DNA of 64,000 nt. Source: Filimonas sp. GTDB taxonomy: Bacteria; Bacteroidota; Bacteroidia; Chitinophagales; Chitinophagaceae. The stretch lies in contig JAFKHH010000017.1 in NCBI GenBank assembly GCA_017306865.1, forward strand, positions 35,453 to 99,452, in the 5' to 3' direction. The notes under the pieces are model-generated. The model saw nothing but the letters and a program-made list of their open reading frames with translations, made no database searches and was not told the origin of the DNA. Below, in pieces: positions 3,601-58,461 of this stretch (the first letter of the stretch is position 1; each line of letters begins with the position of its first letter). A program made the translations under genes and the position numbers.

Positions 3601-6600
3601 CTGGAATGATAATTCGTCCAGGCAGGTAACGGATAAAGATTCTGCCAATGTAACCATTGGCTCATCTGCACCTGATGTTTTCATTATCACCAAATTTTCC
3701 AACAGTGATAAATATGAATTTTATACGCTGAACAATAGTAAAAAAACAATTAGCAGGAAGATTCAGCAGAAAGATAAGGGTATAGACCTGCTATATGCGT
3801 TTGTGAAAGACAACCGCCTATATCAGCAGTCAATGTCTTTTAGCAGATCACTTAAAGAAAAGGCATTAGACATTACGTATCATACGTTCAGAAATAAAAC
3901 ACTGCCAGGAGCCAAAGAAACATGGTCGGTAAACATCAAAAACAATAAAGGGGAAAAAGCAAATGCAGAATTGCTGACGGCAATGTACGATGCATCTCTC
4001 GACCAGATAACTGGGATGGAATGGCGCACGCCTTATATATGGAATTACCCTGGCGCCTATGCTTACTGGAACGCTGGCGATAATTTTTCCGCAGGCTATG
4101 GCGCAGTAGAATATAATCCAAACCTGCAATTTTTTAATTTCTCTCACGACATGAACGCTGACGTTGTCGTTGCCGGCTACGCCAGCAAGAACTTGCGATT
4201 AAAAGCAGCCCCTGCACCAACTGTACAAGCTGATAATATAAGTGAAGAGAAAGTAATGGCTCAGGATCTTAACGGATCTGGGTCGAAAGTACTTATAAGA
4301 GGCGCTTCATCACTCTCTGGCGCAGCTCCGCTATATGTAGTAGACGGAGAGCTGCGGACAGATGCCAATGTATCGCCGGATGATATTGCCTCTACTACTG
4401 TTTTGACCGGAGCACAGGCTGTTGCCTTGTATGGCTCCCGTGCCAACAATGGTGTAATTGTAATAACAACCAAAGGAGGCGGAAAAAATGCAACACAAAC
4501 AATTCGTAAAAATTTTAACGAAACTGCATTCTTTTTCCCGGCTGTGCATGCAGATACTGCCGGTAATTATACCATCTCCTTCACCATGCCAGAGGCACTA
4601 ACGCAATGGAAATGGATGTCTCTTGCCCATACAAAAGACCTGGCGTTTGGTTATAACCAAACACTCGTAGTAACACAAAAAGAATTGATGGCACAATTAA
4701 ACCTGCCACGATTCCTGCGCAATGGAGATAAAATAGAATTGAGCGCGAAGATCAGCAACACAGGCAGCAAAGAATACACCGGCCAGGCACACATACAGCT
4801 CATTAACCCGGAAACGAATCAGCCGCTGGATGGATTATTCCAGAATGTATTCCCAGACCAGTATTTCACTGTTGCTGCCGGGCAAAGCAGCGTGGTGAAG
4901 TTCCCTGTTTCTGTTCCGTACAATTTTACACAACCCGTAATTGTGCGTGTAACTGCTGCATCGGGAGATATGAATGACGGAGAAGAATACACATTACCTA
5001 TTCTGTCTAACAGGATATTGGTTACTGAATCGCTTCCATTTCTTGTAAAAGGCGACACCACTGCGCACTTTACTTTTACCAAACTAGCAAACACACAAAG
5101 CGAAACATTAAAAACACAAAACCTTACAGTAGAGTACACGCCTAATCCTGTTTGGTCTGCAATACAGGCATTACCATACTTATCTGAATACCCTTATGAA
5201 TGTGCAGAGCAAACATTCAACAGGTTTTATGCAAATGCACTGGCGTCTTATATAGTGAAGAAAAATCCTGCACTGAAAGCAGTCTTTGATCAGTGGCAGA
5301 AAGATACTACAGCTTTACAAAGCCCACTGGAACAAAATCCGGAGCTGAAACAAATATTATTGCAGGAAACCCCTTGGGTATTGGCAGCAGGCAATGAAAC
5401 ACAGCAACGCAAAAATATAGCCATGCTGTTCGATATTGCAAAGATGTCCGGTAACCTGAAATCTACTATTGACAAGTTGAAAGCGATGCAACTGCCAAGC
5501 GGTGGTTTCCCCTGGTTTAAAGATGGACGTGAAGACAGGTATATTACACAATACATTTTAACAGGCATCGCACGACTGACCAGGTTGAATGCCATACCTG
5601 CGGACCAGGCAAGTGACCTCCAAAATATATCCACAAAAGCATTGCAATATGCAGACAAGGAAATGAATGGAGAATATGACAGGTTGATAAAAAATAAAGC
5701 CGATCTCAAGTCAAATAATCTTAGCTCCTTCCAGGTTCAGTATCTGTACATGCGTAGCTACTTTAGTAACCCGGTACAAGTAAAAACTGCCTACAATTAT
5801 TATTACCAGCAGGCAATGCAATATTGGCAAAGTCAAAGCAGCTATATGAAAGCAATGATCGCATTTGCTTTGCTGAATACAAACCAGGAAACTTTTGCAC
5901 TTTCAAGAGTGATCCCTTCCATAGAAGAGAATGCTGTAGAAACAAAAGATAAAGGCATGTATTGGAAAGATGCACAATATGGCTACTACTGGTACAATGC
6001 ACCTATTGAGCAACAGGCACTGCTGATAGAACTAGCAAAAGCGGCCGTAGCAAAACAAGCGGGTAATAAGTTCGGCAACAAGGCGCAGGACATGTTAACA
6101 TGGCTCATATTGCAAAAGCAAACAAACAATTGGAAAACGACAAAAGCAACTGCTGATGCATGCTATGCTTTGCTGCTAGACAATAAACTATCTGCACAAA
6201 ACAGAACGGCAACTATACAGCTAGGCAACTATACAGTAGCCGGCGCTACAGGAAAACAAACTGCGGGCAGCGGTTATTTTAAAACAACAATCGGCGGTGA
6301 AAAAGTGCAGCCATCTATGGGCAATATTACAGTAACCACTACTGGCGGTGCTAACAATAGTATCTCCTACGGAGCAGTGTACTGGCAATATTTTGAAGAT
6401 ATAGATAAAGTAACGCCTTCATCCTCCCCATTGTCTGTAAAAAAACGTTTGTTTATCGAAGACAACACAGGAAAAGAAAAAGTGCTGAAACCTGTGGCAG
6501 AGAACCAGGAATTGAAAGCCGGAGACAAAATCACAGTGCGTTTGGAATTACGCAGCGATCGTGATATGGAATACATACACCTGAAAGATATGCGCGCTGC

Positions 6601-27869: not shown

Positions 27870-28209
27870 AGGTTATTTTTATGTTGACAACCTAAAAGTA
27901 CAATAGATAATTTAGACCACTAAACACTTGAGCCCAAAACCAATAATAACCTCATTAAAATATCTCTACGTGTCATCTGCACACCCAAAAATTTGCACTC
28001 AAAGTATTTAAGGAATGTATTTTTTTGCTCGTTGCAAATATTTTTTTATCTCTCTTTTGTTACACTACAATCATCATTTTTTCATTGACAAAAAGCGTAT
28101 TTTATACAACACTAAGTCTTGTTGTTTTTATCATCGCACAAAAAAATATTTTGAAAAATATTTGGTGACATCGAAAAATTATTTCTTTCTTTGCATTGCA
28201 AATTAATTA

Positions 28210-28362
28210 ACAACACATGCAACGAATAGGATTACATATAGAACTAATGAATGAGTTTAGCCCGAAAGGCTACACAAATTCCGGGGCATGTATTGCTGCA
28301 GTTTAGTGAATAACGAAAATCGCTGAAATATACGCCCCGCCTGCAAAGCGGGGCTTTTTATT
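28210..28362 (+). ncRNA. candidate small RNA or leader (about 150 nt) ending in a strong intrinsic terminator
   Basis: No ORF. Terminator gccccgcctgcaaagcggggc + ttttta at 28332-28362. Lies in an AT-rich 960-nt non-coding region. Confidence 0.25.
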
Positions 28363-28369
28363 TGCTTTC

Positions 28370-28672
28370 ATGTTAAAATCATTTCGTCTGCACAACAACG
28401 GCAGACGAAGTAAACAACAAACAAAAAATAAAATTGCAACAGCAGTTACAACATAAACGATTTACGATGACAACAGTGAATAATAAATCATTCTTCTCTG
28501 AACGCTATTGGTATGCGCAGCCGACAATGCATCTGCTGCCGATAGGACAGGAGAATAAAGGTGATCATCAACGACCGGAATATATTTGGCAGTACGCCTG
28601 TGTATAATCACACAAGCAAATGCGAAACAAAAAGCCCGGTCGAAATAAAACGACCGGGCTTTTTGTTTTTAG
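28370..28672 (+). ncRNA. candidate non-coding transcript (about 300 nt) ending in an intrinsic terminator, immediately upstream of the tRNA array
   Basis: Internal hairpin tcgtctgc...gcagacga. Terminator aagcccggtcg...cgaccgggctttttgtttt at 28632-28672. No plausible ORF. Confidence 0.25.
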
Positions 28673-28845
28673 TATGATGACAAGGCATAAAAATATTGTT
28701 GCAGAAAAGGAGGGAAATAAGTTATCCCCGTGAGATGCAGCGGGGCAACTTTCCTAAAACCAAAAGTCACTAAACAAAAGTCATTGAGACAATAGTCAGT
28801 AAGTCAATAAACGAAAAATTCGTTTAAGAAGTTCTTTGAAAAAAT

Positions 28846-28918
28846 ATAGCAGCATTCCAATTGGTTGGATACTCCATTTGGATTGGAGAGGATGCAGGTT
28901 CGAGTCCTGCCTGCTATA
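28846..28918 (+). tRNA. tRNA-Pro (anticodon TGG)
   Basis: Cloverleaf parsed by hand: acceptor atagcag/ctgctat, anticodon stem ctcca/tggag with loop tttggat, T-arm gcagg-ttcgagt-cctgc. Confidence 0.7.
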
Positions 28919-28923
28919 CAACA

Positions 28924-28995
28924 AGTCTGTTCATCTAATGGTCAGGATATCAAGCTTTCTACTTGAAGATGCCGGTTCGAATCCGGTACAGACTG
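28924..28995 (+). tRNA. tRNA-Glu (anticodon TTC)
   Basis: Acceptor agtctgt/acagact, anticodon stem tcaag/cttga with loop ctttcta, T-arm gccgg-ttcgaat-ccggt. Confidence 0.65.
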
Positions 28996-29043
28996 CAAAA
29001 CATGTTACTGGTTCCCTGCTAACCGGATAAACAGTAACAAACC
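28996..29043 (+). repeat. conserved palindromic inter-tRNA spacer (tgttactgg...ctaaccggataa...cagtaaca). Paralogous spacers at 29267-29317, 29391-29445, 29682-29724 and 29814-29854.
   Basis: Stem tgttactg/cagtaaca. Spacer 5 contains a perfect 20-bp palindrome gttaccagttaactggtaac. Confidence 0.6.
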
Positions 29044-29115
29044 TGGCTTATAGTTTAATGGATAGAACACTTCACTACGGATGAAGGAATACAAGTTCGA
29101 CTCTTGTTAAGCCAA
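29044..29115 (+). tRNA. tRNA-Arg (anticodon ACG)
   Basis: Acceptor tggctta/taagcca, anticodon stem cttca/tgaag with loop ctacgga, T-arm acaag-ttcgact-cttgt. Confidence 0.7.
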
Positions 29116-29116
29116 C

Positions 29117-29189
29117 TATCGGATAGTGCAATTGGTAAGCATTTCAGAATTTGACTCTGAAGGTGTTGGTTCAAGTCCAGCTCCGATAA
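29117..29189 (+). tRNA. tRNA-Gln (anticodon TTG)
   Basis: Acceptor tatcgga/tccgata, anticodon stem tcaga/tctga with loop atttgac, T-arm gttgg-ttcaagt-ccagc. Only 1 nt separates it from the preceding tRNA. Confidence 0.7.
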
Positions 29190-29193
29190 CTAT

Positions 29194-29266
29194 CGACCTG
29201 TAGCTTAATGGTAAGAGCAGGAACCTTATACGTTCAAGGTTAACAGTTCAAATCTGTTCAGGTCGA
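29194..29266 (+). tRNA. tRNA with anticodon TAT (Ile-like, UAU). Assignment is tentative.
   Basis: Acceptor cgacctg/caggtcg, D-stem gctt/gagc, anticodon stem ggaac/gttca (one mismatch) with loop cttatac, T-arm aacag-ttcaaat-ctgtt. Confidence 0.5.
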
Positions 29267-29317
29267 CGTAAACTTTATGTTACTGGCTACTTGCTAACCG
29301 GATAACCGGTAACAAAT

Positions 29318-29390
29318 GTTGGCTTTAGCTTAACTGGTAAAGTGCCACACTGTGAATGTGGAGAACAGGGTTCGAGTCCCGGAGTCAACC
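29318..29390 (+). tRNA. tRNA-His (anticodon GTG)
   Basis: Acceptor gttggct/agtcaac, anticodon stem ccaca/tgtgg with loop ctgtgaa, discriminator C. Position -1 is T, so no G-1 is encoded. Confidence 0.6.
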
Positions 29391-29445
29391 AGCATTAGTT
29401 ACAAGTTACAGGTCACTAGCTAACCGGTTATCCTGTAACAACTAT

Positions 29446-29518
29446 TGGTTCGTAGCTCAATGGCGAGAGTATCCGGCTTTTAACCGGAGGGTTGTGAGTT
29501 CGAGTCTCACCGGGCCAA
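29446..29518 (+). tRNA. tRNA-Lys (anticodon TTT)
   Basis: Acceptor tggttcg/cgggcca (two G-U pairs), anticodon stem tccgg/ccgga with loop cttttaa, T-arm gtgag-ttcgagt-ctcac. Confidence 0.65.
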
Positions 29519-29521
29519 CAG

Positions 29522-29593
29522 GGATGAATAGCTCAGCGGCAGAGCAACGGTTTGTTAAACCGATGGTCGAAAGTTCGAATCTTTCTTCATCCG
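29522..29593 (+). tRNA. tRNA-Asn (anticodon GTT)
   Basis: Acceptor ggatgaa/ttcatcc, D-arm gctc-agcggc-agagc, anticodon loop ttgttaa, T-arm gaaag-ttcgaat-ctttc. Confidence 0.6.
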
Positions 29594-29599
29594 CAATAA

Positions 29600-29681
29600 G
29601 TGAGTGCGCCAACGCGGGAGAGTTGGTCTTGTCTGTAAAACAGGTGCCTTCGGGTTGAATAAGTTCGAATCTTATCACTCA
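29600..29681 (+). tRNA. tRNA-Tyr (anticodon GTA), with long variable arm
   Basis: Acceptor gtgagtg/cactcac, anticodon stem cttgt/acagg with loop ctgtaaa, variable-arm hairpin gcc-ttcg-ggt, T-arm ataag-ttcgaat-cttat. Confidence 0.65.
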
Positions 29682-29724
29682 CACAATACCGGTTTCCAGT
29701 CATATGGTTAACCAGTAATAAAAC

Positions 29725-29813
29725 GGAGAGTTGACAGAGGTGGTAATGTGCGGGTTTGCTACACCCAGGCTATCGCTTAATGCGGTACAAAGGTTCAACT
29801 CCTTTACTCTCCG
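29725..29813 (+). tRNA. tRNA-Ser (anticodon GCT), with long variable arm
   Basis: Acceptor ggagagt/actctcc, anticodon loop ttgctac, T-arm aaagg-ttcaact-ccttt. Length 89 nt. Confidence 0.55.
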
Positions 29814-29854
29814 CGAATAGATGAGACAAGTTACCAGTTAACTGGTAACTACCA

Positions 29855-29927
29855 GGTGTTTTGGCAGAGATGGTCTATGCACCGGACTGAAAATCCGGCA
29901 AAGAAGGTTCGAATCCTTTGGACACCA
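29855..29927 (+). tRNA. tRNA-Phe (anticodon GAA)
   Basis: Acceptor ggtgttt/ggacacc (two G-U pairs), anticodon stem ccgga/tccgg with loop ctgaaaa, T-arm gaagg-ttcgaat-ccttt. Confidence 0.65.
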
Positions 29928-29955
29928 CTATGCAGAATTATAAAACATAAATGCT

Positions 29956-30438
29956 ATGGAACAGCAACAATGGAGAAAACTGAATGGTGAAAGAATTCAC
30001 ATTCCTATTACCGAAGAGATCAGTAATACATTGGCACATGAAATAAGCATGGGCCATTCATTAAAAGTTTGTATAGGCACTGACAGTCAGGTGAAAGGAA
30101 GAGAAACTGAATTTGCAACCGTTATTGTTTTCATCCGCAAAGGCAAAGGAGGTTTTATGTACATACGCAATGAAACCTCTAAACAGAAGATGCACATCAA
30201 ACAAAGGATGTTGATAGAAGTAAGCAAAAGCATAGAGGTATCTTATGCGCTGTGCAACATATTCTCACGCTATGGTGTGGATATGGAGGTGCATGCTGAC
30301 ATCAACACCAACCCCAACTTTAAAAGCAACGATGCGTTGAAAGAGGCTATGGGATTTATTGTGGGAATGGGCTTCGCCTTCAAAGCAAAACCAGAAGCAT
30401 TTGCAAGCTCAAGCTGCGCAAATAAGGTGGTGCAATAG
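29956..30438 (+). CDS. hypothetical protein, possibly RNase H-like fold (YkuK/DUF458-like). Only 28 nt downstream of tRNA-Phe with no terminator between, so probably co-transcribed with the tRNA array.
   Basis: 160-aa ORF. KVCIGTDSQ followed by a beta-hairpin (ETEFATVIVFIRKGKGGFMYI) and a later EVHADIN segment resemble an RNase H-like catalytic core. The family assignment is from memory and is uncertain. Confidence 0.5.
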   Translation: MEQQQWRKLNGERIHIPITEEISNTLAHEISMGHSLKVCIGTDSQVKGRETEFATVIVFIRKGKGGFMYIRNETSKQKMHIKQRMLIEVSKSIEVSYALCNIFSRYGVDMEVHADINTNPNFKSNDALKEAMGFIVGMGFAFKAKPEAFASSSCANKVVQ

Positions 30439-30466
30439 TGAGTGGTGAGGTGTCAGTTGTGAGTAC
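30438..30466. repeat. repeat family 3 copy
   Basis: agtgagtggtgaggtgtcagttgtgagta, compared with 8643-8668. Confidence 0.55.
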
Positions 30467-30985
30467 AGTAAAATAATTTGAACAATATTTTTACTACGCA
30501 AGTATGCTGCGCACTTTGTTTTGAGGTTTGCATTATCAAATTAAAAAAAGAAGTTCTTTTAAAATACTACAACAACCTGAAAGGATATAGCCATCAAGCT
30601 AACCGGTGAGTGAAGAAGATCGAAGCAATATTTTTCACCACATAGAAGCATAAGGTACATAGGCACATAGGATAAGTTGATGTCCATTAATAATGGCAAT
30701 GACCGATTCACTCAAGAGAACATAGATCACATAGGAGACCGCTTTTCGATCTCTGCGTCTTCTTTGCGGTCTCTGCGATACCAGGTTCGCCTGGGGCAAA
30801 TGAAATATCTGAAGTTGCTGGTTATGCCCTGAAAGGTTTAGTTCAAAAGCTTGCTTGACGGCAAGATGGAATTTGTCACATTATCAGCAAACCGGATGTG
30901 TGTTTTTAAAAGCACCATAGTGCAGCGGTAGTAACTGGCTGTATGCTGTTGCGGCAGTGTGAAATTTCCACCATAGGATCTGTGG

Positions 30986-31013
30986 GTCGGGGGTTCAATT
31001 CCCTCATGGGCCG
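30986..31013 (+). other. isolated tRNA 3-prime-half-like fragment (T-arm ggggg-ttcaatt-ccctc plus acceptor 3-prime strand atgggcc). No matching 5-prime half.
   Basis: No canonical D-arm, anticodon arm or acceptor partner could be found upstream. Confidence 0.35.
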
Positions 31014-31016
31014 GAT

Positions 31017-31080
31017 GGCTCATTAGCTCAGTTGGTAGAGCAACAGATTTGTCTTGTAGGTTCGAGTCCTACTTCTTCAC
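31017..31080 (+). pseudogene. degenerate tRNA-like sequence (Lys/Thr-like 5-prime half ggctcattagctcagttggtagagc plus T-arm gtagg-ttcgagt-cctac). The anticodon arm is truncated by about 8 nt and the acceptor does not close.
   Basis: The 5-prime acceptor ggctcat would pair with the atgggcc located upstream at 31006-31012 rather than with its own 3-prime end. Confidence 0.35.
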
Positions 31081-31450
31081 CAAAGGAAGAATGGCGTAAA
31101 TGGTAAACGCAAAGCACTTGTAATGCTTCGACTGAAAATCGAAAGAAGTCGTCTCTTCTATAAAAAAGGCACCTAAACCTTAGAGAAAGGGTTGCTTTTT
31201 AGCACAAAGCATATTTCTTAATAGATATTCTATTAACCAATGTGTGGCGTGCAGCTTATTCGCGGCTAGCATATTATCATTCTTGCTAAGCAGTCATTCA
31301 CTTTTCCCTGCCAAGATCAGCAATGATCAAAGTAAGACTAAACTGAATCTCTCAATAGCAACAAACATAATATCCGCAGCGGGTAAGTAAAAAGCAACCC
31401 ACCCTTTAAGCAACCAACAACTATTATAATACAGATGTAAAAACACAACA

Positions 31451-55887: not shown

Positions 55888-58461
55888 TCAAATTTTCAAA
55901 TTCTCTTTCTTCCCCACTAAGCTCACCACATACGCCACTACCACACAAATTACAATCGCAAATACAGGATATAAAAAGAAACTTACGTTGGTTGCGGATT
56001 GTATGAAGTAAAGGCTAATTGCGCTGACAAAAAATCCTGTAAGCACACCTACACTGTTTATGCGGGGAAAGAAGATGCCCGCAACAAACATTCCTGCAAG
56101 GCAACCACCAAACAACCCGATTATTTTCAGATACTGATCCCAGATAGAAGCATTGCTTAGATACACCAGGTAGATGGCGATGCAGCATCCCAGCAAGCCA
56201 AGCACAAAAGTTGTCCATCGCGCAAAACGGAACCGCTGCTGATCGGTGCTTTGTGGCTTTACTGATTGATAAAAATCTGTAGTCACCACCGTTGCTATGG
56301 AGTTCATGCTGGAACTGATCGTAGACATAGTAGCTGCGAATAACCCGGCAATGACCAGCCCGGCTAACCCTGCGGGCAACTGCTGTGAAATGAACCAGGG
56401 AAAAATATCATCCGTATGCCCATGCGGATCAAGTTGCGCGGGATTGTGCCTGAAGTACACCCACAAGGCTGTGCCTACGCTAAAGAAGATGAGTGAGGCT
56501 GGTATAACCAATATTGCATTTGTATAAATGGATTGTCTTGCTTCTTTTTCTGTAGCTGTTGTAAGGTAACGTTGTACTACTACCTGGTCTGAAGAATAGG
56601 TTACGAGCTGGGTAAGAAACCCGCCAACAAACACAACCCACAACACCGGCTGTGTAAAACTCCATCCGAGTGTAGCCACACGCAATTTATCATGCGACAC
56701 GGCTTCTGAGAAAAGTGTACCCCAGCCGCCATTAATGGAGTGCGCAATAAAGAACAGGCTCAGCAATGCACCACCCAGCAATACCCCTACCTGCATTACT
56801 TCTGTCCAGATCACGGCTTCTATACCACCGGACACGCTATACGCTGTAGTAATTAAACTAGTTCCTATAATGCAGACAAATATATTGATACCGGTAACTG
56901 TACTTAGTACCAATGCAGGTAAATAAATAACAATACCCAGGCGGCTAACCTGGAACAATACAAAATTCACGCTGCCCAATAATTTCACTTTCGCATTGAA
57001 ACGTATATGTAAGTATTCGTAAACGCTGGTAAGCTTTAACTTCCTGAAGTAGGGCAGGTAAAAATAAACGATGATAGGCGCGACTGCAACGATCATCATA
57101 TTGCTTAAAAAATAAACCCAATTGGTAGCATACGCTTTTGCAGGAATAGCAATGAAGGTTAGCGCGCTAAGCTTGGAACCGAAAATACTTAAACCCGCAG
57201 CCCACCACGGTATCTTGCCACCACCCAAAAAGAAATCGCTTGTTGTACTTTTCATTTTGCGCGACACATACACACTAATACTTACGAGTAATACAAAGTA
57301 GAGTGCAAGCACAGACCAGTCAAGCCATTTGAATGCGCCTCCCGGGTGTACAGGTGTAGCCATTAGCACACGCGGGGTACGTGTTGCGGGCCTTGCTTCG
57401 CCTGAAGGAATTACTACATTACCATTCCATACGACTAGTGGTGTGGTGACGGGGGACCAGGTACTTGCAACAGGATTATCTGCGGCATCGCTTTTCCTGT
57501 CTGTAAATACACGCCCCATATCCGCCCATGATTCAGTAATGGTATTGAATGCATAGATCGTAGCAGAAAAACCGGGATGACTATTCTTTAAAGAATCATT
57601 TTGCAAAAAATATTGCCCGTTGTCTCCACCGAAAATGAGCAACTGCGATTGCCCTGCATTGTACGCAGGTGTAGGGGCAGCCGTTACTGGTTGCGGCAGA
57701 TCCGGCAGCCTGCTCCAACCAGTAACAGGAGAATATTTGTAAGCATCTTTTAAATATTCCCGTTGTATTTTCCCCTGTGCATCTGTGTGTAGATGCGCAC
57801 CGCTGAATAAATAAAAATTACCATCCTGCACGCCTGTAATGCTCAGCATACGTGATGGCCCGGGCCATGATGGCAGTGTATTCCAGGCACGTGTGACTTT
57901 CGGCGTAATAAGATTGAGCGATAAAAAATAATTATGTGCAGTATCTGTTGCAGACTGTACGCCTCCCGCTATGTATAATGTATTGCCTGCAATAGCACCG
58001 GACGCATTTGCTAAAGGAAATGGCAGTTCGGGCAATTCTTCTGTTGTGATTTTCCCTTGCTGATAGCGAAGTATAAAAGCAGCGCTATAATATTTTTCCG
58101 CATCGTTGCCGCCAATACAGATTACGCCATCTTGCCAGGTAAGCGATATACCATAAGCCAGTGGATGTGGCAACATACCAGCTTGTTTCCACTGTGCCTG
58201 TGCATTTTCCAATACATATATGTCACTATAGTATGTTTTAGTGCCGCCTGTCCATGGCGCACCGGCAGGAAAGTTGGCGCCTCCGGCAAAAAGCAATGCA
58301 CTATTGCTCACACCGGCAAATCCACCGGCGAACCCAACATTGCCAGGTAGTGGTGGCAGTTGCGTCCATTTAAAATATTGCGGAAGGGAGTCGTTGGCAA
58401 ATGTGGTATTTGCTGCAACAAGTGTGTATAAGGTAATGAGGAAAAACAAATACTTTTTCAA
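55888..58461 (-). CDS. fusion protein: N-terminal NanM-like (Kelch-repeat) N-acetylneuraminate mutarotase plus C-terminal sodium:solute symporter (SSS family, sialic acid transporter-like)
   Basis: Signal peptide and Kelch-type repeats (LLFAGG, ICIGG, LYIAGG, YLFSG, LLIFGG) for about 390 aa, then 13-14 TM helices with SSS-type motifs. Confidence 0.75.
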   Translation of the reverse strand: MKKYLFFLITLYTLVAANTTFANDSLPQYFKWTQLPPLPGNVGFAGGFAGVSNSALLFAGGANFPAGAPWTGGTKTYYSDIYVLENAQAQWKQAGMLPHPLAYGISLTWQDGVICIGGNDAEKYYSAAFILRYQQGKITTEELPELPFPLANASGAIAGNTLYIAGGVQSATDTAHNYFLSLNLITPKVTRAWNTLPSWPGPSRMLSITGVQDGNFYLFSGAHLHTDAQGKIQREYLKDAYKYSPVTGWSRLPDLPQPVTAAPTPAYNAGQSQLLIFGGDNGQYFLQNDSLKNSHPGFSATIYAFNTITESWADMGRVFTDRKSDAADNPVASTWSPVTTPLVVWNGNVVIPSGEARPATRTPRVLMATPVHPGGAFKWLDWSVLALYFVLLVSISVYVSRKMKSTTSDFFLGGGKIPWWAAGLSIFGSKLSALTFIAIPAKAYATNWVYFLSNMMIVAVAPIIVYFYLPYFRKLKLTSVYEYLHIRFNAKVKLLGSVNFVLFQVSRLGIVIYLPALVLSTVTGINIFVCIIGTSLITTAYSVSGGIEAVIWTEVMQVGVLLGGALLSLFFIAHSINGGWGTLFSEAVSHDKLRVATLGWSFTQPVLWVVFVGGFLTQLVTYSSDQVVVQRYLTTATEKEARQSIYTNAILVIPASLIFFSVGTALWVYFRHNPAQLDPHGHTDDIFPWFISQQLPAGLAGLVIAGLFAATMSTISSSMNSIATVVTTDFYQSVKPQSTDQQRFRFARWTTFVLGLLGCCIAIYLVYLSNASIWDQYLKIIGLFGGCLAGMFVAGIFFPRINSVGVLTGFFVSAISLYFIQSATNVSFFLYPVFAIVICVVVAYVVSLVGKKENLKI

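Follow-up and report, generated by a model that had tools for sequence, protein, structure and literature searches.

A chromosomal tRNA array of the Chitinophagaceae: a probable accessory operon with putative translation-sensing attenuators

We find that the tRNA array of a Filimonas sp. is, on balance, best explained as a vertically inherited accessory tRNA operon, and its nucleotide sequence suggests that expression is probably gated by attenuation that senses translation. The window, that is the whole stretch of 64,000 nucleotides that was analysed, holds eleven intact tRNA genes. They are preceded by a leader with two small open reading frames and two terminators and followed by a ykuK-family gene and a conserved structured RNA (Table 1). 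The array keeps its order across relatives while its content varies, and the synteny of leader, array, ykuK, structured RNA and SPFH gene recurs across them.

Table 1. Features of the tRNA array locus, in window coordinates
Feature	Position	Strand	Remarks
Leader promoter-like element	28161..28193	+	-33 TTTG 28161-28164; -7-like TTTCTTTG 28186-28193
Leader ORF1	28217..28306	+	29 aa, MQRIGLHIELMNEFSPKGYTNSGACIAAV
Candidate antiterminator strand in ORF1	28282..28294	+	CGGGGCATGTATT
Intrinsic terminator T1	28334..28362	+	GCCCCGC-CTGCAAA-GCGGGGC then TTTTTATTT; terminator scan
Leader ORF2	28434..28607	+	57 aa from TTG 28434, or 46 aa from ATG 28467
Bidirectional intrinsic terminator T2	28625..28668	.	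AAACAAAAAGCCCGGTCG / CGACCGGGCTTTTTGTTT
Element M3	28695..28755	+	TTGCAGAAAAGGAGGGAAATAAG, hairpin, TTTCCT
Proximal promoter-like box (putative function)	28826..28842	+	AAGAAGTTCTTTGAAAA (-7-like TTCTTTG)
tRNA-Pro (TGG)	28846..28919	+	ARAGORN, Rfam; A1-U72 pair; first gene of the array
tRNA-Glu (TTC)	28924..28996	+	ARAGORN, Rfam
Spacer hairpin 1	28997..29043	+	GTTACTG...GCTAACCGG...CAGTAAC; 5 nt short of tRNA-Arg; z -3.0
tRNA-Arg (ACG)	29044..29116	+	ARAGORN, Rfam; abuts tRNA-Gln
tRNA-Gln (TTG)	29117..29190	+	ARAGORN, Rfam
tRNA-Ile (TAT)	29194..29267	+	ARAGORN, Rfam; reads ATA
Spacer hairpin 2	29268..29317	+	GTTACTGG...GCTAACCGGATAACCGGTAAC; 4 nt short of tRNA-His G-1; z -2.7
tRNA-His (GTG)	29318..29390	+	ARAGORN, Rfam; extra 5' G encoded (G-1 register, read off sequence)
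Spacer hairpin 3	29391..29445	+	GTTACAGG...GCTAACCGGTTAT CCTGTAAC; 6 nt short of tRNA-Lys; z -2.8
tRNA-Lys (TTT)	29446..29519	+	ARAGORN, Rfam
tRNA-Asn (GTT)	29522..29594	+	ARAGORN, Rfam
tRNA-Tyr (GTA)	29600..29681	+	ARAGORN -ps80, orthology; class II, C8
Spacer hairpin 4	29682..29724	+	diverged member, ACCGGTT..GGTTAACCAGTAAT; 5 nt short of tRNA-Ser; z -2.7
tRNA-Ser (GCT)	29725..29814	+	ARAGORN, Rfam
Spacer hairpin 5	29815..29854	+	perfect 20-nt palindrome GTTACCAGTTAACTGGTAAC; 5 nt short of tRNA-Phe; z -4.2
tRNA-Phe (GAA)	29855..29928	+	ARAGORN, Rfam; last gene, 27 nt from ykuK
ykuK-family gene (DUF458, PF04308, RNase H-like)	29956..30438	+	160 aa; Pfam E-value 1e-36
Conserved structured RNA	30844..31175	+	tRNA-like modules: T-arm, hairpin, D-arm

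Results

Ten tRNA genes (Pro-TGG, Glu-TTC, Arg-ACG, Gln-TTG, Ile-TAT, His-GTG, Lys-TTT, Asn-GTT, Ser-GCT and Phe-GAA) are called on the + strand of 28846-29928 both by ARAGORN at its default setting and by Rfam at the gathering threshold. The eleventh, Tyr-GTA (~29600-29681), is missed by both at these settings and called by ARAGORN at -ps80; its acceptor stem is a perfect 7 bp (GTGAGTG/CACTCAC), and it is orthologous to the Tyr genes of the form GTGAGTGCG...CACTCACAC that are called by default in eight related arrays. Because these orthologues are called, the odd C8 of tRNA-Tyr is a family trait and not decay. The eleven genes announced in an earlier note on this DNA are thus upheld, ten by the default programs and Tyr-GTA by the relaxed threshold together with orthology. 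The same note put the close gaps at 1-4 nt: short gaps exist, but they range from 0 to 5 nt, the Arg and Gln genes abutting. Its statement that no gene encodes CCA is confirmed from the gene sequences; it overlooked that C74 follows the discriminator in every tRNA gene of the window and of all related arrays.

Every tRNA type of the array has orthologues across loci, among them tRNA-Pro genes starting ATAGnAG in 17 arrays and tRNA-Ile (TAT) in 20 arrays. At least one array tRNA, that for Lys, which was tested directly, is selected for its cloverleaf: 27 array orthologues carry compensatory changes at 12 of 17 cloverleaf pairs, almost none of which is broken, at a mean column identity of 79%. 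Jointly the 11 array tRNAs read 42% of codons, and ATA accounts for 34% of the Ile codons in the genes of the window.

The longer gaps between the tRNA genes had been described as paralogous spacers with related palindromes, and they do form one hairpin family. A 44-nt unit is present in three copies, 80% identical, at 29004-29047, 29279-29322 and 29405-29448. The motif GCTAACCGG has 4 occurrences in the 64 kb, where 0.37 would be expected, and 0 of 100 shuffles reach 4; three of the occurrences lie in the spacers and the fourth at 30598. Likewise, GTTAC-N6-36-GTAAC is found 9 times in the window (1.4 expected), and the array contains four distinct sites. All five long spacers fold better than their shuffled versions, with z from -2.7 to -4.2. 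The Ser-Phe and Tyr-Ser spacers are members too, as the note had supposed: the nearest other species (L090) has a full-length unit in its Ser-Phe spacer. Strain variants show a 7-nt deletion 5' of the stem of spacer hairpin 3. The family is found in one species-level lineage and L090 only, hence the covariation evidence is thin.

Upstream of the array the note had pointed to terminator-ended units, and both terminators are there, T1 recovered by a terminator scan and T2 as an inverted repeat. The leader opens with -33 and -7-like boxes that are near-invariant in an alignment of 23 homologous upstream regions. By comparison with the established sigma-A promoter consensus, we take these boxes to be of the Bacteroidetes type and the element to be a putative promoter. 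ORF1, present in 55 loci, is open in 23/23 aligned homologues, its indels being in-frame and of 3 nt. Its codon-position entropy is nearly flat (0.78, 0.79, 0.86), and it uses 17-20 different amino acids per ~29 residues, against 14-14.7 expected. The candidate antiterminator strand near its end is invariant in its nucleotides, synonymous positions included, and can pair with the ATATAC-GCCCCG stretch that makes up the 5' arm of T1. When the T1 3' arm is left out, the minimum free energy fold contains this pairing in 22/23 homologues, with a mean of -20.7 kcal/mol and z -3.8. The T1 stem, 28334-28354, and its T-run are conserved in 23/23 aligned homologues.

In the window, codons 2-21 of ORF1 include a cognate codon for 11/11 array tRNAs (P ~1e-4, for a codon range chosen post hoc). 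Across loci, the ORF1 of the same locus contains a codon for 85.6% of array anticodons, against 81.8% in permuted pairings, a permutation that ignores phylogeny, and anticodon by anticodon none of the matches between ORF1 and array is significant. Given the general amino-acid diversity of ORF1, a match of its content to that of the array is weak.

The second leader unit is built alike. ORF2, recovered from 14 loci by tblastn and ORF extraction, has 19-20 different amino acids in each and the family consensus MLKQLRHKRF..CYWYAQ..PIGNEN..HQRPD... Its CGACCGG at 28572-28578 copies the 3' arm of T2, and this heptamer or a close variant is conserved within the QRPD codons in most of the 14 loci. 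T2 itself is a perfect 18-nt inverted repeat (arms 28625-28642 and 28651-28668) whose stem sequence is conserved across genera. It is followed by M3, a hairpin with its 5' arm at ~28721-28730, the loop TGAGATGCAG and its 3' arm at 28741-28749; in 30 aligned loci the stem carries compensatory changes at 7 of 11 pairs. M3 looks like a partial duplicate of the ORF2 tail and its terminator, and in L075 and L077 it resembles that tail.

tRNA-Pro starts 8-30 nt past the M3 T-run in most loci and 8-10 nt past it in many, and in the latter a separate promoter would not fit between them. In the window the proximal box ends 3 nt before tRNA-Pro A1, and its TTTG ends 7 nt before A1; a second copy, 94% identical, lies at 30548-30564 (direct repeat D10). 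GTTCTTTGA stands 5-8 nt before tRNA-Pro in L009, L010, L012, L013, L016 and L058. This -7-like box, present in the window and several relatives, might serve as a promoter of its own, perhaps a constitutive one, and transcription from it would bypass the attenuators. Even in L075, with only a relic of the array, and in L077, with none, ykuK is still preceded by the leader.

The YkuK protein has the invariant residues D43, E88, H113 and D115 and is 100% identical to a protein of a 'Filimonas sp.' MAG. AlphaFold2 predicts its structure with a pLDDT of 95.6, and the nearest solved folds to the predicted one, weakly, are RNase HI and EndoV. YkuK homologues also occur within the tRNA clusters of large phages. 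The structured RNA downstream, ~300 nt long, was found by blastn in ~40 loci and carries compensatory changes at 58 of 78 predicted pairs; against Rfam it gives only a sub-threshold match to YrlA (36 bits, cutoff 69) and weak tRNA matches. It comprises two or three tRNA-like modules, and in the alignment a candidate 3' pseudoknot can be made out by eye.

Among 81 related loci, same-strand tRNA genes lie directly upstream of ykuK in 62 (at least one gene), 57 (at least two), 43 (at least five) and 19 (at least ten), the maximum being 17 when counted at the ARAGORN default threshold. Dozens of genera-level relatives share the arrangement of array, ykuK, RNA and SPFH; synteny of the SPFH gene extends to 40 loci, and the genes upstream differ. 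Genes for sole isoacceptors (Phe, His, Asn, Tyr, Trp, Cys, Asp) vary in presence between loci. In the closest other species, insertions of 27-28 nt interrupt the T-loops of Asn and Phe.

Discussion

The mechanism that we propose is as follows. The array genes and ykuK would be transcribed as a single precursor, since the gap between Phe and ykuK is only 27 nt and holds no terminator. RNase P would cut the tRNA 5' ends and RNase Z or exonucleases the 3' ends, which the CCA-adding enzyme would finish from the encoded N73-C74. The tRNAs would mostly serve split codon boxes, Ile-UAU being directed to the heavily used ATA. Two tandem leader-peptide attenuators, ORF1 with T1 and ORF2 with T2, would gate expression. 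Near its 3' end, either small ORF contains a copy of the 3' arm of its terminator, and this copy could pair with the 5' arm to form an antiterminator. A ribosome reading smoothly to the stop codon would mask the copy, and termination would ensue; a ribosome stalled earlier, or absent, would leave it free and allow read-through. In ORF2 the strand lies ~30 nt before the stop codon, and it is not evident that a terminating ribosome would mask it there. Because near-every amino acid is used and, in the window, every array tRNA finds its codon in ORF1, the ORFs would sense general decoding capacity and not a single amino acid.

ORF1 and ORF2 might instead be free-standing genes for small proteins or sRNAs with no regulatory role, the array being driven by the proximal promoter-like box, a view to which we give a minor though real chance. 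Their peptides are conserved (WFSPKGDY, CGAC, PIGNEN, QRPD) as those of functional peptides would be, each unit ends in a strong intrinsic terminator, and the GTTCTTTGA box of several loci could supply the promoter. Yet conservation is highest at the very codons that copy terminator arms, and these are invariant at synonymous sites; the last leader hairpin leaves 8-10 nt before tRNA-Pro in many loci, and the leader accompanies ykuK also in loci that have no array. Neither the extreme amino-acid diversity nor the coverage of array anticodons would, on this view, have an explanation. As to the spacers, we regard the five as a lineage-specific hairpin family anchored 4-6 nt before tRNA 5' ends, which most likely works as RNA, insulating folds or serving as processing or exonuclease-stop elements of the precursor. 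Perfect palindromes fit DNA-binding sites equally well. That the spacers are instead DNA-level elements free of any part in RNA processing, either operators of a dimeric regulator or selfish REP- or MITE-like elements that colonised the gaps of lost tRNA genes, likewise has in our view a minor though real chance. Such elements are suggested by the perfect 20-nt palindrome of one spacer and the palindrome TAACCGGTTA of another, by the restriction of the family to a single lineage, as after recent spread, and by the GCTAACCGG copy outside the array. Other hairpin mini-insertions demonstrably invade related arrays, T-loops included; the window array lacks the Asp, Met, Ile-GAT, Val and other genes of related arrays, although an exact match between these and the spacer positions is not established. 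Against DNA-level elements, the hairpins all stop at that set distance before the next tRNA while lying 7-15 nt from the preceding one, as would suit either an RNA leader element or a unit that was duplicated whole. Pairing at stem position 6 is kept although the copies differ (T:A, T:G and A:T in spacer copies 1, 2 and 3), every copy lies on the transcribed strand in a single orientation, and GTTAC...GTAAC has only four other matches in 63 kb, unrelated in sequence.

The earlier note took the array for a supplementary set of phage, plasmid or island origin. The first part is supported, if indirectly: the genes are dense, distinct and CCA-less, and even sole isoacceptors come and go between loci. 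The second is not supported, in view of chromosomal flanks, flat GC, recurrent synteny and viral contigs free of the array patterns, and we think a recently acquired mobile set very improbable. In its favour, dense, CCA-less and non-periodic genes resemble phage and L-array sets, large-phage tRNA clusters contain YkuK homologues, and some array tRNAs match phage tRNAs at ~80% by blastn. However, these blastn matches span single tRNAs only. Pfam scanning of ORFs in ~50 kb around the array found genes that are usual for a Bacteroidota chromosome (AspRS, a cNMP-binding regulator, SPFH, MgsA, MFS transporters, an outer-membrane beta-barrel protein), with no gene for an integrase and none of phage or plasmid type; throughout the region the GC content stays flat. 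Two array-specific tRNA patterns, of which the Lys-Asn junction pattern matches 14 of the independent loci, have no match in the 2.9 million viral contigs of IMG/VR, and dozens of Chitinophagaceae genera share the locus organisation with its syntenic SPFH and leader. A recent phage, plasmid or island acquisition is largely refuted by the flanks, the GC content, the conserved locus and the absence from IMG/VR; an ancient transfer from a phage to the ancestor of the clade is possible. An ordinary housekeeping cluster, holding the only genomic copies of the 11 isoacceptors, would agree with the intact and structurally conserved tRNAs, the vertically conserved chromosomal locus and the share of codons read. 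Moreover, the sole canonical non-array tRNA seen, Leu-GAG in L033, ends A73-C74 without CCA, thus this trait is not special to the array. Such a cluster is nonetheless unlikely, for close relatives differ widely, from 0 to 17 genes at the ARAGORN default, with Phe, His, Asn and Tyr present or absent, and relatives devoid of an array (L072-L083) must hold full tRNA sets elsewhere. The T-loop insertions in Asn and Phe of the nearest other species, the unusual A1 or U1 starts, Tyr C8, Ile-UAU and class-I-length 'Leu' genes in relatives, and the fairly diverged orthologues speak against it as well. We infer that the array tRNAs supplement the housekeeping set and do not replace it.

Leader-peptide attenuators are known from the trp, his and thr operons and, in a ribosome-stalling form, from antibiotic-resistance genes. 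Like these, the window has a short ORF with an intrinsic terminator behind it, and a segment within the ORF may form an alternative helix with the terminator 5' arm. In contrast, its leader, as read from the DNA, has no run of codons for a single amino acid, nearly all 20 appearing once or twice, comes as a tandem pair of units plus a third partial copy, and would control tRNAs and a nuclease in place of biosynthetic or resistance genes. The clusters of large phages (T4-like, jumbo) are also compact, with many different tRNAs, and they too have a YkuK-family gene directly downstream of a same-strand tRNA (gap of 30 nt in Stenotrophomonas phage DLP_6, 41 nt in Synechococcus phage BUCT-ZZ01, 27 nt in the window). 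Their tRNAs encode CCA, however, whereas those of the window do not; small ORFs and homing endonucleases are interspersed in the phage clusters, no phage gene is seen in the window, and YkuK is accompanied in the phages by a DUF2828-DUF7788 protein or a CCA-adding enzyme, neither of which lies near the Chitinophagaceae locus. The RNA downstream of ykuK resembles YrlA and other bacterial Y RNAs in that its T-arm, capped hairpin and D-arm modules mimic the tRNA elbow, and like YrlA (rsr-yrlBA-rtcBA) it sits beside RNA-metabolism genes (Chen et al. 2014, PMC4201824; Hughes et al. 2020, PMC7790460). It differs in its length of ~300 nt, in its number of tRNA-like modules, in the candidate 3' pseudoknot and in a score under the Rfam cutoff, and the Pfam-scanned ORFs of the window include no Ro60/Rsr or RtcB gene; Chen et al. 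(PMC4201824) warn that tandem tRNA-like sequences may mimic YrlA matches.

L-arrays or 'tRNA array units' are, like that of the window, dense, same-strand, non-periodic sets of different tRNAs, probably supernumerary (PMC8421152, PMC4758250), and Bacteroidetes are listed among the array-bearing phyla. The window array, with 11 genes (2-17 in relatives, default ARAGORN), does not reach the cutoff of 20 genes used by Tran et al. 2016 (PMC4758250), and it occupies one conserved chromosomal locus in many genera, whereas L-arrays are described as sporadic and horizontally spread. In these two papers, and in the YkuK/DUF458 literature searched, we found no mention of a link to ykuK or to a tRNA-like RNA. 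The array of Anabaena (PCC 7120) is described as silent until translation is impaired and as co-regulated with RNA-repair functions (Santamaria-Gomez et al. 2021, PMC8421152). Its induction by impaired translation matches the translation-sensing control proposed here, although regulation there is via promoter direct repeats and the window would use leader-peptide attenuators. The locus thus appears to be the form that an accessory tRNA operon, chromosomally fixed in many Chitinophagaceae, takes in one species, in which two small "sensor" ORFs may switch the array on when translation falters.

Results

On the best-supported reading, the array is an accessory tRNA operon that has been passed on vertically at the locus formed by the leader and ykuK. 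At default settings ARAGORN calls ten tRNA genes on the + strand (Pro-TGG, Glu-TTC, Arg-ACG, Gln-TTG, Ile-TAT, His-GTG, Lys-TTT, Asn-GTT, Ser-GCT and Phe-GAA), and the Rfam tRNA model returns the identical ten at 46-69 bits each. Tyr-GTA is missed in the window by both searches and is recovered by ARAGORN once the threshold is relaxed. Read by hand, its acceptor stem is a perfect 7 bp (GTGAGTG/CACTCAC), the anticodon GTA stands in the loop CTGTAAA, the variable arm is long and the T-loop reads TTCGAAT; its C8 is also found in clearly orthologous Tyr genes that ARAGORN calls by default in eight related arrays. Given the relaxed call, the hand-read fold and the recurrence of C8 in orthologues, we accept all eleven distinct genes listed in the earlier note, which had proposed ARAGORN as a check; the program thus calls most of the array by default and the last gene at the relaxed threshold. 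The eleven genes have eleven different anticodons, share the + strand and are packed at about 10 per kb (11 in 1.08 kb), with all gaps within 0-55 nt and the short ones of 0-5 nt.

Features of the locus, in window coordinates
Feature	Position	Strand	Description
Bacteroidetes-type promoter-like element	28161-28193	+	TTTG-21 nt-TTTCTTTG; upstream of ORF1
ORF1	28217-28306	+	29 codons; open in 23/23 aligned homologues; in 55 loci
Terminator T1	28334-28362	+	follows ORF1
ORF2	28434 or 28467 to 28607	+	ORF1-like design
Terminator T2	28625-28668	.	bidirectional; inverted-repeat arms
M3	28695-28755	+	hairpin and T-run; 7/11 pairs covary
tRNA array	28846-29928	+	eleven tRNA genes
ykuK	29956-30438	+	160 aa, YkuK/DUF458 RNase H-like; starts 27 nt after tRNA-Phe; Pfam E-value 1e-36
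Structured RNA	30844-31175	+	roughly 300 nt; conserved in about 40 related loci

As the earlier note also stated, none of the array genes encodes CCA. A C follows the discriminator, at position 74, in every tRNA gene of the window and of all related arrays; the 3' ends of the array tRNAs in the window and in the related ykuK loci (L004-L091) read N73-C74, the next base being mostly A. The single non-array tRNA examined, a canonical tRNA-Leu in one of these loci (L033:1177-1263, - strand), likewise has C74 without CCA, so this arrangement may be a lineage-wide trait of tRNA genes and 3' processing. A stand-alone tRNA-Lys in another locus, L044, was dropped as a housekeeping comparator, being array-type on inspection, which leaves Leu-GAG of L033 as the only canonical one.

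Among 27 array orthologues of tRNA-Lys the cloverleaf is kept, with compensatory changes at 12 of the 17 pairs and almost none broken, and in the remaining tRNA types acceptor stems and anticodons are conserved across related arrays. Genes for sole isoacceptors, namely Phe, His, Asn, Tyr, Trp, Cys and Asp, are present in some relatives and missing in others. We take the array tRNAs to be functional and probably supplementary to the housekeeping set, for which the shifting content and the interrupted genes of L090 (below) are indirect evidence. The array takes in Ile-UAU, to which relatives add class-I-length 'Leu' genes; in a scan of 81 loci (80 ykuK loci from one-genome-per-species contigs, and the window) arrays lean to split-box decoders, Thr is never seen, and Ala, Gly and Leu are rare. 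Of the Ile codons in the genes of the window 34% are ATA, and 42% of all codons there can be read by the eleven array tRNAs.

Several related arrays carry inserted elements. Hairpins of 20-28 nt, CCTGCC[CT]G..loop..C[AG]GGC[AG]GG, lie exactly between GTTC and GAATC of T-loops (L090:215-245 and 575-605; five in L060:3514-4240; L018:4699; L033:4145; also L009, L051 and L058); to judge by their appearance, they are either mini-insertion elements with a specific target site or intervening sequences of an unusual kind. In L090, the nearest other species, the hairpins measure 27-28 nt and interrupt the T-loops of Asn and Phe; the window array has none. A second hairpin family, TCCCGAAAGCTTTCGGGA, breaks the D-arm/anticodon region of array Ile-TAT and Pro genes (L005:2182-2264; L024:1572-1657; tRNA-Pro of L026, L055, L068 and L031), and ARAGORN misses or miscalls the tRNAs that it interrupts. 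Between His and Arg some arrays hold a conserved tRNA-like gene of 94 nt with an elongated anticodon arm (..CTTTCTTTCTGAGAGG..), to which ARAGORN assigns 4-base 'anticodons' (L019:1481-1575; L027:4761-4854; L029:4275-4368; L037:1475-1568; not in the window); many arrays have a gap of roughly 100 nt between His and Arg, which this gene probably occupies. Ahead of tRNA-Phe at least 12 arrays have a hairpin element of about 67 nt, ..TTGTTTG..TGAATTCGATGATGAGGAAA..ATCAGTCAATA..CAAACAA.. (L012:4762-4831, L013:1265-1330, L026:4815-4883, L052:3921-3984 and others), of which the window retains a remnant, GAATAGATGAGACAAG at 29815-29830, fused to a spacer palindrome. A kink-turn or C/D-box reading of the element ahead of Phe was abandoned, as it has no CUGA box.

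The palindromic spacers had been described in the earlier note as paralogous, and they are indeed non-random hairpin paralogues. A 44-nt unit recurs in three of them at 80% identity; GCTAACCGG is present in 4 copies in the 64 kb against 0.37 expected, and GTTAC-N6-36-GTAAC in 9 against 1.4, with four distinct sites inside the array. For each of the five long spacers, 199 shuffles out of 200 fold less well than the spacer itself (z -2.7 to -4.2). In all five the hairpin ends 4-6 nt before the 5' end of the next tRNA, and between 7 and 15 nt separate it from the preceding one. In the three full copies the pair at stem position 6 is T:A, T:G and A:T. Strain-level variants (99% identical) retain the family, one of them with a 7-nt deletion, and L090 (95% YkuK identity, 81% nucleotide identity) has it in matching gaps, one of which holds the unit at full length where only a shortened, perfect palindrome of 20 nt is left in the window. 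The exact motifs are found in none of 80 more distant loci, and a search of JGI metagenomes with the pattern GTTACNGGNNNNNNGCTAACCGG gave at least 120 single chance matches, none of those listed lying in a related array. Within the 64 kb the family is limited to the array except for one motif copy at 30598. Taken together, the shuffle statistics and the copies in L090 and the strain variants, with none in the distant loci or among the listed metagenome matches, mark the family as real and lineage-specific. Most simply, the hairpins would be lineage-specific RNA elements in the 5' leaders of Arg, His, Lys, Ser and Phe. Likeness to integron attC sites was ruled out by eye, the core motifs being wrongly ordered.

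Two further places in the window resemble array sequence. A perfect 11-bp inverted repeat, GTTACTGGTTG...CAACCAGTAAC, with GTTACTGG/CCAGTAAC ends as in the spacer hairpins, lies at 57683-57726 in the coding region of a - strand gene (55888-58461) and probably arose by chance. At 30439-30843 the window has about 400 nt more than its relatives between ykuK and the structured RNA. This stretch holds a second promoter-like 17-mer, AAGAAGTTCTTT(G/T)AAAA (30548-30564), and the fourth GCTAACCGG copy (30598-30606), as would be expected if sequence from the array flank and the spacers had been duplicated locally.

The earlier note took the array to be derived from a phage, plasmid or island, a view that the surroundings do not bear out. 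Pfam identifies the flanking genes as common chromosomal ones of Bacteroidota (AspRS, a cNMP-binding regulator, SPFH, MgsA, MFS transporters, an outer-membrane beta-barrel protein and alpha-2-macroglobulin), the scanned flanking ORFs of the window include neither an integrase nor a phage gene, and the GC content is flat at 0.40-0.42 throughout the region, without compositional anomaly. Comparison of the array region with a phage collection (blastn) yields only single-tRNA matches of about 80% identity. Across the 2.9 million viral contigs of IMG/VR, a pattern for the 5' half of tRNA-Pro has 3 chance matches, with the tRNA present at none, and the Lys-Asn junction pattern has 0; the latter is present in 14 of the independent ykuK loci. 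One or more same-strand tRNAs precede ykuK at 62 of the 81 loci (at least two in 57, at least five in 43, at least ten in 19); related arrays number 2-17 tRNAs at the default ARAGORN threshold, and more distant ykuK loci are wholly without an array. Array content varies strongly among loci around a conserved order, Pro-Glu-(Gly)-Asp-Gln-His-[gap]-Arg-IleTAT-(Leu)-Met-IleGAT-Val-Lys-Asn-Tyr-Ser-Ser-Cys-Phe-Trp, of which the window has a rearranged subset. The locus and its gene order are common to many Chitinophagaceae genera, with leader and SPFH syntenic; the downstream SPFH gene keeps its place in 40 loci, and the upstream protein genes are not syntenic. Close-relative contigs comprise strain variants and one other species, and an exact-protein look-up of the window YkuK finds only short Logan contigs of the same strain. 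From its sequence context, then, the array is a long-standing chromosomal trait of a Chitinophagaceae clade, not a recent island.

Upstream of the array, the terminator-ended units that the earlier note reported in an AT-rich non-coding region are present, and the region proves to be conserved and well ordered, with ORF1 and ORF2 as predicted small reading frames. Indels among ORF1 homologues are in-frame. The last codons of ORF1 (C-G-A-C-Y-A, GCGGGGCATGTTAT) are invariant at the nucleotide level, and when the 3' arm of T1 is omitted they pair with its 5' arm in 22 of 23 MFE folds, the resulting candidate antiterminator fold averaging -20.7 kcal/mol (z -3.8). In ORF2 the QRPD codons, CAACGACCGGAT, are a copy of the T2 3' arm, CGACCGGG, and this copy is present in most loci. 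M3 resembles an incomplete second copy of the ORF2 tail with its terminator; tRNA-Pro starts 8-30 nt past it in most loci. Both ORF1-T1 and ORF2-T2 lie upstream of ykuK even in a locus with no array (L077) and in one with only a relic (L075), so we assign the leader to the ykuK operon, with the array nested inside it. In L077 the space between T2 and ykuK (4560-4950) is taken up by a unit of about 115 nt (..GGACGGAAACAAGCGCAAAAGTGTTTTGAAGAAGATGTGGAAGATAAAATG..) that is repeated three times in tandem.

The composition of the two ORFs is unusually broad. The roughly 29 residues of ORF1 homologues draw on 17-20 different amino acids (mean 18.2), where random peptides and real 29-residue stretches use 14.0-14.7 and 18 or more has a probability of about 1-2%; ORF2 homologues use 19-20. 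Within codons 2-21 of the window ORF1, an interval picked after viewing the data, each of the eleven array tRNAs has at least one cognate codon (P about 1e-4), and 15 of these 20 are array-readable against 8.9 expected. Over the related loci, 85.6% of array anticodons have a codon in their own ORF1 compared with 81.8% on permutation (P = 0.0007, phylogeny ignored), with no single anticodon significant when ORF1 codons and array content are compared per anticodon.

The window YkuK is 100% identical to a 'Filimonas sp.' MAG protein (Chitinophagaceae) and belongs to a family of about 1000 clusters at 50% identity, with D43, E88, H113 and D115 invariant. Its predicted structure is confident (pLDDT 95.6); a sequence search of solved structures finds no relative, and Foldseek gives weak similarity to RNase HI, EndoV and PIWI (TM 0.36-0.42), too weak for a specific activity to be read from it. 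NCBIfam has no model for YkuK, ORF1 or ORF2. The literature portrays YkuK solely as a predicted RNase H-like protein, and a search of it on YkuK/DUF458, DUF2828 and tRNA gene clusters in Chitinophaga found nothing relevant. Homologues occur in 69 large-phage records, T4-like and jumbo phages included. In Stenotrophomonas phage DLP_6 ykuK lies 30 nt downstream of tRNA-Lys within a region of about 37 tRNAs, in Synechococcus phage BUCT-ZZ01 it follows tRNA-Leu by 41 nt in a cluster of 12 tRNAs, and in Pseudomonas phage Milchi it stands at the edge of the tRNA region. It adjoins a CCA-adding enzyme and tRNA-Ser in Cronobacter phage S13 and, in KVP40-like Vibrio phages, a DUF2828-DUF7788 (vWA) protein annotated 'RNA-binding protein'; neither the latter protein nor a CCA-adding enzyme is found near the Chitinophagaceae loci. 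Coordinates of the YkuK regions in our phage loci are L215:7977-8459, L220:5947-6423, L219:5947-7519, L217:3251-5447 and L216:7926-8426. That the association recurs independently in phages is an argument that YkuK and tRNA clusters are functionally linked. A tie to CCA-less tRNAs in particular was ruled out: the YkuK-adjacent phage tRNAs all encode CCA, so the link is not bound to CCA-less genes.

The structured RNA downstream of ykuK shows compensatory changes at 58 of 78 predicted pairs. Its modules, a T-arm, a capped hairpin and a D-arm, stand in tandem, and a covarying pairing of the 3' loop with the tail, seen by eye, is a possible pseudoknot. The RNA is absent from Rfam: YrlA (RF02553) scores 36.2 bits against a gathering cutoff of 69, the other matches are weak tRNA ones, and in 14 related loci nothing reaches a gathering threshold. 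No Ro60 (TROVE) gene, which in Y RNA loci is expected within about 4 kb, is found among the scanned ORFs of the window, nor is there a DUF2828-like gene at its locus.

Discussion

How is such an operon controlled? Short conserved ORFs precede intrinsic terminators twice (ORF1/T1 and ORF2/T2), and in both cases an alternative antiterminator helix that uses an ORF-internal segment can be computed. Tandem regulatory codons for one amino acid are lacking; classical leader-peptide attenuators have codon runs for a single amino acid, whereas ORF1 and ORF2 spread over 17-20 amino acids. Two leader-peptide attenuators that sense general decoding capacity probably gate the operon. Alternatively, the products of ORF1 and ORF2 could be small proteins with a function of their own. 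The array itself could be driven by an independent promoter, given a -7-like box at 28826-28842, just ahead of tRNA-Pro, that is repeated at 30548-30564; the leader, for its part, persists before ykuK where the array is missing. As an accessory operon, the array would be transcribed together with ykuK, and its tRNAs would be matured by RNase P at the start, by RNase Z or exonucleases at the other end, and by the CCA-adding enzyme.

By a definition that appears in Tran et al. 2016 (PMC4758250), a tRNA array unit has at least 20 tRNA genes at two or more per kb; against that definition the eleven genes of the window stay below the gene cutoff and reach the density. L-arrays have been characterized as having one orientation, as co-transcribable, non-periodic, sporadic or horizontally spread, supernumerary, and silent but stress-induced (Santamaria-Gomez et al. 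2021, PMC8421152). Our array resembles them in being same-strand, tightly spaced and non-periodic, and in its suggested stress control, and the leader features are compatible with stress-induced behaviour. It differs in that it is not sporadic, occupying one shared locus in 57 of 81 ykuK loci.

Taken as a whole, the locus might be a previously undescribed module for sensing translation capacity, a reading that we offer tentatively and consider less likely than not. Its two leader peptides, arranged in tandem and 'pan-amino-acid' in content, would probe almost all decoders, each array tRNA type included; a stalled ribosome, possibly as a result of tRNA damage by anticodon nucleases, starvation or antibiotics, would flip the terminator/antiterminator switch and turn on a back-up tRNA operon. 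The YkuK nuclease would be encoded on the shared transcript, and a multi-module tRNA-mimic RNA follows the locus.

Accessory tRNA arrays are widespread, yet their regulation and purpose are largely unknown. The Anabaena array is the one studied case, in which translational stress induces expression through a sensor that is unknown (PMC8421152). The locus supplies a concrete candidate for a sensing mechanism, leader ORFs that sample the decoders under their control, and it joins supernumerary tRNA arrays, the uncharacterised YkuK/DUF458 family and a new structured, tRNA-mimicking RNA, in a family with cultivable members such as Niastella, Chitinophaga and Pinibacter. If the reading as a sensing module is true, YkuK would be a tRNA-array-associated nuclease common to Chitinophagaceae chromosomes and large-phage tRNA clusters, the first functional context for a widespread 'conserved hypothetical' family. 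Confirmation would show that bacterial tRNA supply can come under feedback control by attenuation and would indicate a function for YkuK in tRNA metabolism.
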